The notes under the pieces: model-generated
Told to the model about the DNA's origin: nothing
Database searches by the model: none
Seen by the model: the letters and a program-made list of their open reading frames with translations, nothing else
Source of the DNA: a virus
Taxonomy: Duplodnaviria > Heunggongvirae > Uroviricota > Caudoviricetes
Virus record (IMG/VR): IMGVR_UViG_3300022692_000022
Strand: one strand, 5' to 3'
DNA: 7,332 bases
In this document: in pieces, positions 3,540-3,576 of the stretch
Numbering within the stretch: position 1 is the first letter of the stretch
Layout: every line of letters starts with the position of its first letter
Position numbers and translations under genes: made by a program

Positions 3540-3564
3540 ACCGCTGCGGCGGTTTTTTTATTTT
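3540..3564 (+). terminator. Short stem-loop followed by a T-run between terL and the capsid gene (possible weak intrinsic terminator/attenuator)
   Basis: Stem ACCGC (3540-3544) pairs with GCGGT (3549-3553) around loop TGCG, followed by TTTTTTTaTTTT (3553-3564). The stem is only 5 bp, so any termination is probably partial. It lies immediately before the AGGAGG RBS of the capsid gene. Confidence 0.35.
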
Positions 3565-3576
3565 CAGGAGGCTGAT

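Follow-up and report, generated by a model that had tools for sequence, protein, structure and literature searches.

In lambdoid phages, the late operon is read from pR′ only once Q has made RNA polymerase insensitive to terminators (PMC7547250). By forming a nozzle at the RNA exit channel, Q stops terminator hairpins from forming; Q-loaded polymerase is termination-deficient (PMC9388147). In phage lambda (NC_001416), gene E is preceded by a GC hairpin, AAAGGCCGC-CUGU-GCGGCUUU-UUUU (6097–6120, −12.2 kcal/mol), located 12 nt before the E start. A further hairpin, AUGGCCC-UUCG-GGGCCAU, is found right after the E stop (7163–7180) and is followed by GGAGG and the FI start. A functional study of these D|E and E|FI hairpins was not found in the literature.

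We analyzed a similar hairpin between terL and the capsid gene in a 7,332-nucleotide stretch of DNA from a virus of the Caudoviricetes (the window). Both loci belong to lambdoid late operons, and the core CCGC..GCGG.UUUUUU is common to both hairpins. Unlike in the window, the gene upstream of the lambda hairpin is D (decoration) and not terL, and E lacks a strong Shine–Dalgarno (SD) sequence. Capsid families and the order of head genes differ as well.

The junction region was 99.6% identical to the Stx2a prophage of E. coli 2014C-4587 (L233) and 98.6% identical to phage BP-4795 (L112), and it was present in 1252 of 5426 complete E. coli genomes. In L233 and BP-4795, the stx, lysis, HNH, terS, terL, capsid, portal, head-completion and tail genes are co-directional. 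Judged from these sequence matches, the window represents the late (virion) operon of a BP-4795-like, Stx-type lambdoid prophage. Neither the window nor the stretches of its relatives that we analyzed reach to Q, pR′ and tR′, whose location upstream of stx is taken from PMC7547250. The genes of the window, as assigned from Pfam domains and open reading frames, are:

211–552, + strand: TonB_C lipoprotein gene (Pfam, ORFs)
684–944, − strand: DUF3950 (YlcI/YnfO) gene, antisense to the late operon around it
926–1291, + strand: HNH endonuclease gene (Pfam, ORFs)
1580–2143, + strand: terS, GTG start (Pfam, ORFs)
2140–3513, + strand: terL, terminase large subunit (Pfam TerL_ATPase and TerL_nuclease), stop codon TAA at 3511–3513
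3577–5514, + strand: prohead protease (S78)–major capsid fusion gene (Pfam Peptidase_S78 48–153, Phage_capsid 386–635)
5559–5780, + strand: small ORF of 73 aa (MAKIRYLQ...), ATG at 5559
5711 to the window end (7332), + strand: open frame that matches the portal of relatives, i.e., the portal gene

The capsid gene does encode the major capsid protein, as a first, sequence-only reading of this DNA had assumed, but its 645-aa product also carries a fused Peptidase_S78 prohead protease. It starts with GTG, and its N-terminus MTLKRAC aligns with the ATG starts of relatives; in other genera, the capsid start of relatives is simply ATG. The terL gene is interrupted by exactly 100 N (2586–2685) with the frame preserved across the gap. 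It measures 1374 nt here versus 1662 nt for the intact homologue in BP-4795 and L233, with about 388 nt of real sequence replaced, which points to a scaffold gap of a draft assembly, or to masking.

Some further features of the window were noted at its ends. The portal frame is open here; the gene is annotated as 'frameshifted' in the 99.6% identical prophage (L233 14427–16849) and as two portal ORFs in BP-4795 (L112 13045–15791). The window is one indel away from both. Its last 80 nt (7253–7332) showed 95–100% identity to three sites, at intervals of 162 nt, within the 3′ portion of the portal gene in relatives (L233 about 15950–16360), and this sequence pattern suggests that the portal C-terminal region holds a tandem 54-codon repeat. 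Another terminator-like hairpin on the + strand, at 90–112, is located upstream of the TonB_C lipoprotein gene. This gene is present in the Stx2a prophage L233, absent from BP-4795, and likely a moron. The DUF3950 gene has promoter-like sites on the − strand at 1014–986.

The gap between terL and the capsid gene comprises 63 nt, TAA-N24-GGACCGC-UGCG-GCGGUUU-UUUUAUUUUC-AGGAGG-CUGAU-GUG, and contains the following elements:

3538–3555, + strand: terminator-type RNA hairpin with 5′ arm GGACCGC (3538–3544), loop UGCG (3545–3548) and 3′ arm GCGGUUU (3549–3555)
3553–3564, + strand: U-tract UUUUUUUAUUUU, of which the first three U are able to pair in the stem and UUUUAUUUU is left 3′ of the stem
3566–3571, + strand: Shine–Dalgarno sequence AGGAGG, separated by the 5-nt spacer CTGAT from GTG 3577

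Hence the hairpin, the T-run and the perfect AGGAGG with its 5-nt spacer before GTG 3577, all described in the sequence-only reading, are indeed present between the two genes. The hairpin core consists of five Watson–Crick pairs, ACCGC (3540–3544) with GCGGU (3549–3553), and two G·U pairs extend the stem to 3538–3555; the consensus scan accordingly recorded seven pairs, four of them G-C, and a loop of four. Seven T at 3553–3559 are followed by ATTTT up to 3564, and this tract is among only three runs of seven or more T on the + strand of the window. The local fold of the hairpin had −10.3 kcal/mol (z = −2.97), and a 6-bp version had −7.5 kcal/mol. Intrinsic terminators typically have a GC-rich stem of 5 bp or more and a loop of 3–8 nt; the hairpin has both, with an energy at the weak end. 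The hairpin had been called weak before; this holds for the stem (−7.5 to −10.3 kcal/mol), but the U-tract is near perfect. Intrinsic terminators carry a U-tract of about 7–9 nt right behind the stem on the transcribed strand, as is seen here, and on the complementary strand no T-run follows the hairpin. The site is also outside coding sequence. It starts 24 nt past the terL TAA, so that a ribosome terminating there would not cover the hairpin, which as modelled is far enough from the terL stop to fold during terL translation.

The sequence UUUUAUUUUC is located directly 5′ of the SD sequence and was unpaired in the predicted folds; it is U/AU-rich, as S1-type translational enhancers are. For the capsid SD sequence AGGAGG, the duplex with the anti-SD sequence had −10.3 kcal/mol. 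The capsid ribosome binding site (RBS) had been taken for the strongest one in the window, but it does not stand alone: the terS SD sequence GGGAGGAGG at 1568–1576 forms a slightly stronger duplex (−12.1 kcal/mol), and the capsid start is a GTG. An out-of-frame ATG-TGA at 3575–3580 overlaps the capsid GTG (gcugAUGUGAcu), 3 nt from the SD sequence, and could compete with it for initiating ribosomes. We dropped a long-range helix of CCUG (about 3524–3527) with CAGG of the SD sequence, which was seen in folds, because the upstream sequence is not conserved in relatives. Rfam 15 had no match at the gathering threshold in the whole window, and at permissive E-value it gave only sub-threshold chance matches around the hairpin, with E-values above 1. 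No promoter-like site was seen after the hairpin in a scan of the window.

A loose terminator scan showed no enrichment in the window (4 sites versus 6.4 ± 2.5 expected). After this result it was replaced by a stricter test that combined a U-tract score of at least 5.5 with a hairpin of −7.5 kcal/mol or lower, evaluated on both strands against 200 dinucleotide shuffles. The pre-capsid hairpin was the only site on either strand to pass both thresholds, and its U-tract score of 5.58 was the highest among three sites from the strict scan on either strand. An equally good site was found in 1 of the 200 shuffles. Within E. coli, seven sites in the 63-nt gap were variable and none of them fell into the 10 core stem bases, which is not significant (P ~0.28).

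We then compared relatives, i.e., loci encoding homologues of the capsid fusion, with one genome per species, plus viral contigs. The order of terL stop, hairpin, U-tract, SD sequence and start was kept in about 12 genera. The layout was found in Enterobacter, Kluyvera, Buttiauxella, Citrobacter, Atlantibacter, Phytobacter, Kosakonia, Pantoea, Rouxiella, Erwinia and Entomohabitans, and also in the distant Hydrocarboniphaga, Snodgrassella and Marinobacter, where capsid proteins are 32–55% identical. In relatives that keep the layout, the flanks and the spacer between SD sequence and ATG have diverged. The usual form across genera is GACCCGC-UCCG-GCGGGUU-UUUUCGUUUC-(A/U)GGAGG, from which the E. 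coli stem differs by a double change of C-G to A-U. In an alignment of 24 sequences, the invariant columns were bases of the stem, the U-tract and the SD sequence, with the GGAG core of the latter conserved. Pair cells were standard-paired in 94%, versus 22–56% when the partners were slid. One stem pair was C-G in 16 sequences and A-U in 7, and the covariation score was reached by none of 500 shuffles. One Pantoea relative has an unrelated stem, AGCCCG/CGGGCU, and loops are mostly of the UNCG type (UGCG, UCCG or UUCG). Evolution has hence kept the pairing rather than the sequence, as expected for an intrinsic terminator. From these sequence comparisons we conclude that the hairpin is a selected RNA structure in a mainly gammaproteobacterial branch.

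Several distant relatives, alphaproteobacterial ones among them, and Burkholderia phage vB_FUB47a had no hairpin; their terL and protease genes are adjacent or overlapping. The element is therefore confined to the mainly gammaproteobacterial branch, and in principle it is dispensable for capsid expression. In the Marinobacter relative (L029 about 2905–2950), the 3′ arm and the U-tract are paired with the SD region in the best local fold (CGGGUUUUCUCGUUUAUGGAGAACCCG, −12.5 kcal/mol). Only in this one sequence was such a predicted alternative structure, which would hide the SD sequence, seen.

Hairpins of this kind recur at other junctions. Within the stretch from terS to the tail genes that we examined, L233 has only four intergenic gaps longer than 40 nt, and all four contain a hairpin: before the capsid gene, after it (without U), before the major tail gene and before the tape measure gene. 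The pre-capsid, pre-major-tail and pre-tape-measure modules have the invariant core CCGC-N4/5-GCGG-N-UUUUUU, and the pre-capsid and pre-tail copies also have UUAUU(U/A)UCAGGAGGC in common. At the major tail subunit gene of BP-4795 (L112 17188–17320), the frame with the annotated start GTG 17188 shares sequence with the tail-terminator gene and runs across the hairpin and U-tract; the true start is probably ATG 17318, 4 nt after CAGGAGGC, in agreement with the PGAP call in L233.

We moreover scanned viral contigs for the pattern hairpin-U5-GGAGG and annotated the ORFs downstream. This sample is biased, since GGAGG was required after the hairpin, and the counts hold among the matches listed. The downstream gene was the capsid fusion in at least 16 matches, the major tail gene in at least 13, the central fibre gene J in at least 11 and tail assembly gene I in at least 6. 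Genes for a virion structural protein and for minor tail M followed in at least 5 matches each, the tape measure gene in at least 3–4, a sheath gene in at least 2 and a gene of another capsid family in at least 1. Endolysin or peptidase genes and one terS also follow the module among the matches listed. The idea that the module marks abundant proteins only is ruled out by J, I, M and tape measure genes downstream of it and by the pre-tape-measure copy. As these genes are low-copy, the module is not a mark of high expression.

A second hairpin was found after the capsid gene:

5530–5549, + strand: hairpin CGGGAGGC-GUGU-GCCUCCCG, 15 nt past the capsid stop, U-tract absent
5523–5561, + strand: AGGAGG (5523–5528) and ATG 5559, which flank the post-capsid hairpin, the ATG 9 nt 3′ of it

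The capsid gene is thus bracketed by a hairpin with a U-tract upstream and a stronger hairpin without U downstream. The post-capsid hairpin has an 8-bp GC stem and −19.5 kcal/mol (z = −3.66), and none of 200 shuffles was as good. Its position was kept in most relatives checked, several distant ones included, with unrelated stem sequences. Since it lacks a U-tract in E. coli, it is not a canonical terminator. Unless the hairpin folds, the SD-like motif is 30 nt away from the ATG of the 73-aa ORF. The layout GGAGG-hairpin-ATG recurs in Enterobacterales relatives, and the predicted fold makes a hairpin-bridged (split) RBS before the 73-aa ORF possible. For favouring capsid mRNA, this stronger conserved hairpin after the capsid stop (5530–5549) is the better placed structure.

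The best explanation for the pre-capsid hairpin is that it belongs to a small group of sequence-related punctuation modules at uncoupled junctions of the virion operon, each consisting of CCGC-N4/5-GCGG-U6, an SD sequence and a start. With moderate confidence, we propose that it is an intrinsic (Rho-independent) terminator-type hairpin which Q-modified polymerase reads through and at which unmodified polymerase stops, beside an independent strong RBS. During lytic growth, polymerase coming from pR′ would be Q-loaded; hairpin formation would be blocked in its exit channel, and read-through would yield capsid mRNA. Polymerase that does not come from pR′, i.e., leaky or moron-derived transcription in a lysogen, would terminate at least partly at about 3560–3564. 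Virion genes with strong RBSs would in this way be silent in the lysogen unless Q is present. The open U-tract and AGGAGG would let capsid translation start efficiently and independently, without coupling, and translation initiation, not termination, would lift capsid output above terminase. A terminator upstream of an essential and abundantly needed gene is tolerable only if the polymerase ignores it, as it would here by means of Q. We infer termination of the unmodified polymerase, the override by Q and an insulating purpose of the hairpin. With a stem this weak (−7.5 to −10.3 kcal/mol), even unmodified polymerase might terminate with low efficiency. Our literature search on the hairpin, on BP-4795-type phages and on the lambda D–E hairpin found no 3′-end, read-through, in-vitro termination or processing data. 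It gave background only, i.e., Q antitermination and predicted terminators in other phages; PMC7547250 describes Term-seq of E. coli O157:H7 Sakai.

How the hairpin relates to capsid abundance had been seen differently in the sequence-only reading, where a partial terminator (attenuator) or processing site combined with strong reinitiation was to put capsid far above terminase. Its structural part stands: the hairpin and U-tract are real, conserved and selected, and the capsid SD sequence is strong, conserved, independent and uncoupled from terL. The causal logic of partial termination does not, because termination before a gene cuts that gene's mRNA. An upstream terminator lowers capsid mRNA relative to terL mRNA and therefore cannot raise the ratio of capsid to terminase, and it is unlikely that the hairpin boosts capsid output through termination. 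An operon-internal attenuator that tunes the downstream-to-upstream ratio was rejected as well: the stoichiometry does not fit, since far more of the downstream gene's product, the major capsid protein, is required than of terminase. Moreover, the terS SD sequence is equally strong, the module also precedes low-copy genes, and in a lambdoid late operon such as this the transcribing polymerase would be Q-loaded and resistant to termination (PMC7547250, PMC9388147). We hence regard attenuation with reinitiation as improbable. That the hairpin arose by chance in a T-rich spacer and has no function is highly improbable. The loose scan without enrichment and the non-significant lack of core-stem substitutions within E. 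coli would be compatible with it, but cross-genus conservation, covariation and the strict shuffle test (1/200) effectively refute this reading.

A post-transcriptional role of the hairpin, including the RNA processing that the sequence-only reading offered as an alternative, is more difficult to set aside, because the same anatomy fits it and conservation alone is no proof of termination. The hairpin might block 3′ exonucleases, mark a processing boundary of terS-terL, or be a fold that keeps the U-rich leader and SD sequence single-stranded; we consider such punctuation a serious, if less probable, alternative. The U-tract might be an S1-type translational enhancer, and the two hairpins may define a stable, highly translated capsid mRNA segment. 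U/AU-rich leaders raise translation via S1, and at the present locus the U-tract is directly 5′ of the SD sequence and predicted to be unpaired. Intercistronic processing sets the papB/papA ratio. The two conserved hairpins around the capsid gene, of which the downstream one is more widely conserved and lacks U in E. coli, are in line with such a role, as are the similar bracketing of lambda gene E and the near-copies before the two most abundant virion proteins, capsid and major tail. Against it, similar modules precede low-copy tape measure, J, I and M, and a hairpin 5′ of a cleavage site would stabilize terL mRNA, not capsid mRNA. The full terminator anatomy, with the U-tract right after the GC stem on the sense strand only, also exceeds what this role needs. 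A post-transcriptional role could nevertheless coexist with terminator function. The cassettes might alternatively act at the DNA level, as 'linker' sequences through which lambdoid phages swap head and tail blocks by homologous recombination; the RNA hairpin would then be incidental. Three similar copies at module junctions of one prophage, a near-identical core common to phages of different genera, and the unusual gene order terL-capsid-portal would agree with this. However, compensatory changes and the unrelated Pantoea stem keep pairing, not sequence, strand asymmetry and the adjoining U-tract and SD sequence point to RNA, and about 25 nt are very short for recombination, which makes a linker quite improbable. 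A cos or pac role is not favoured: in HNH/terS-type cos phages the cos site is upstream of terS, and the covariation of the pre-capsid hairpin is of the RNA type. As for the whole cassette family at uncoupled junctions together with the U-less post-capsid hairpin, it is unlikely that they are mainly post-transcriptional stoichiometry punctuation, or recombination linkers, and not terminators.

The head module with its hairpin occurs in roughly one quarter of complete E. coli genomes, many Stx-converting phages included. If the modules are conditional terminators, they would add an extra layer that silences virion genes in lysogens and would make late expression strictly Q-dependent. If they act post-transcriptionally, they would be a simple and reusable means by which long phage operons set their protein ratios. 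The ratio of capsid to terminase is better explained by translation starts and the post-capsid hairpin. Only the recurrence of the cassette at uncoupled junctions and the bracketing of the capsid gene by two hairpins might repay experiments.

Beyond lambda, several described systems can be set beside the terminator-type hairpin that we favour. The T7 terminator T-phi follows major capsid gene 10; its target is T7 RNA polymerase, and it shapes how abundant the capsid message is relative to others. The hairpin at 5530–5549 resembles it; unlike the pre-capsid hairpin, T-phi lies downstream of the capsid gene. The E. coli rplL-rpoB attenuator is a partial intrinsic terminator within an operon that lowers expression of the downstream genes, an effect opposite to what attenuation with reinitiation would need here. 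In Q-read terminators, i.e., tR′ and downstream sites, intrinsic anatomy is likewise found within or heading a late unit whose polymerase Q makes termination-resistant (PMC7547250, PMC9388147). In contrast to the pre-capsid site, which is about 12 kb downstream and between structural genes, tR′ is a regulatory switch just after pR′. In SPP1, predicted Rho-independent terminators in late structural gaps were taken as boundaries of transcription units (PMC6316719). Moron terminators of HK97-like phages are of a similar kind. Hosts and polymerase control differ in these phages, and no promoter-like site follows the pre-capsid hairpin; a terminator prediction inside a late operon is not to be taken as such a boundary. 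We conclude that the pre-capsid hairpin is ordinary operon punctuation, of the intrinsic-terminator type, in a probably antiterminated phage late operon, and that it is mirrored in lambda.
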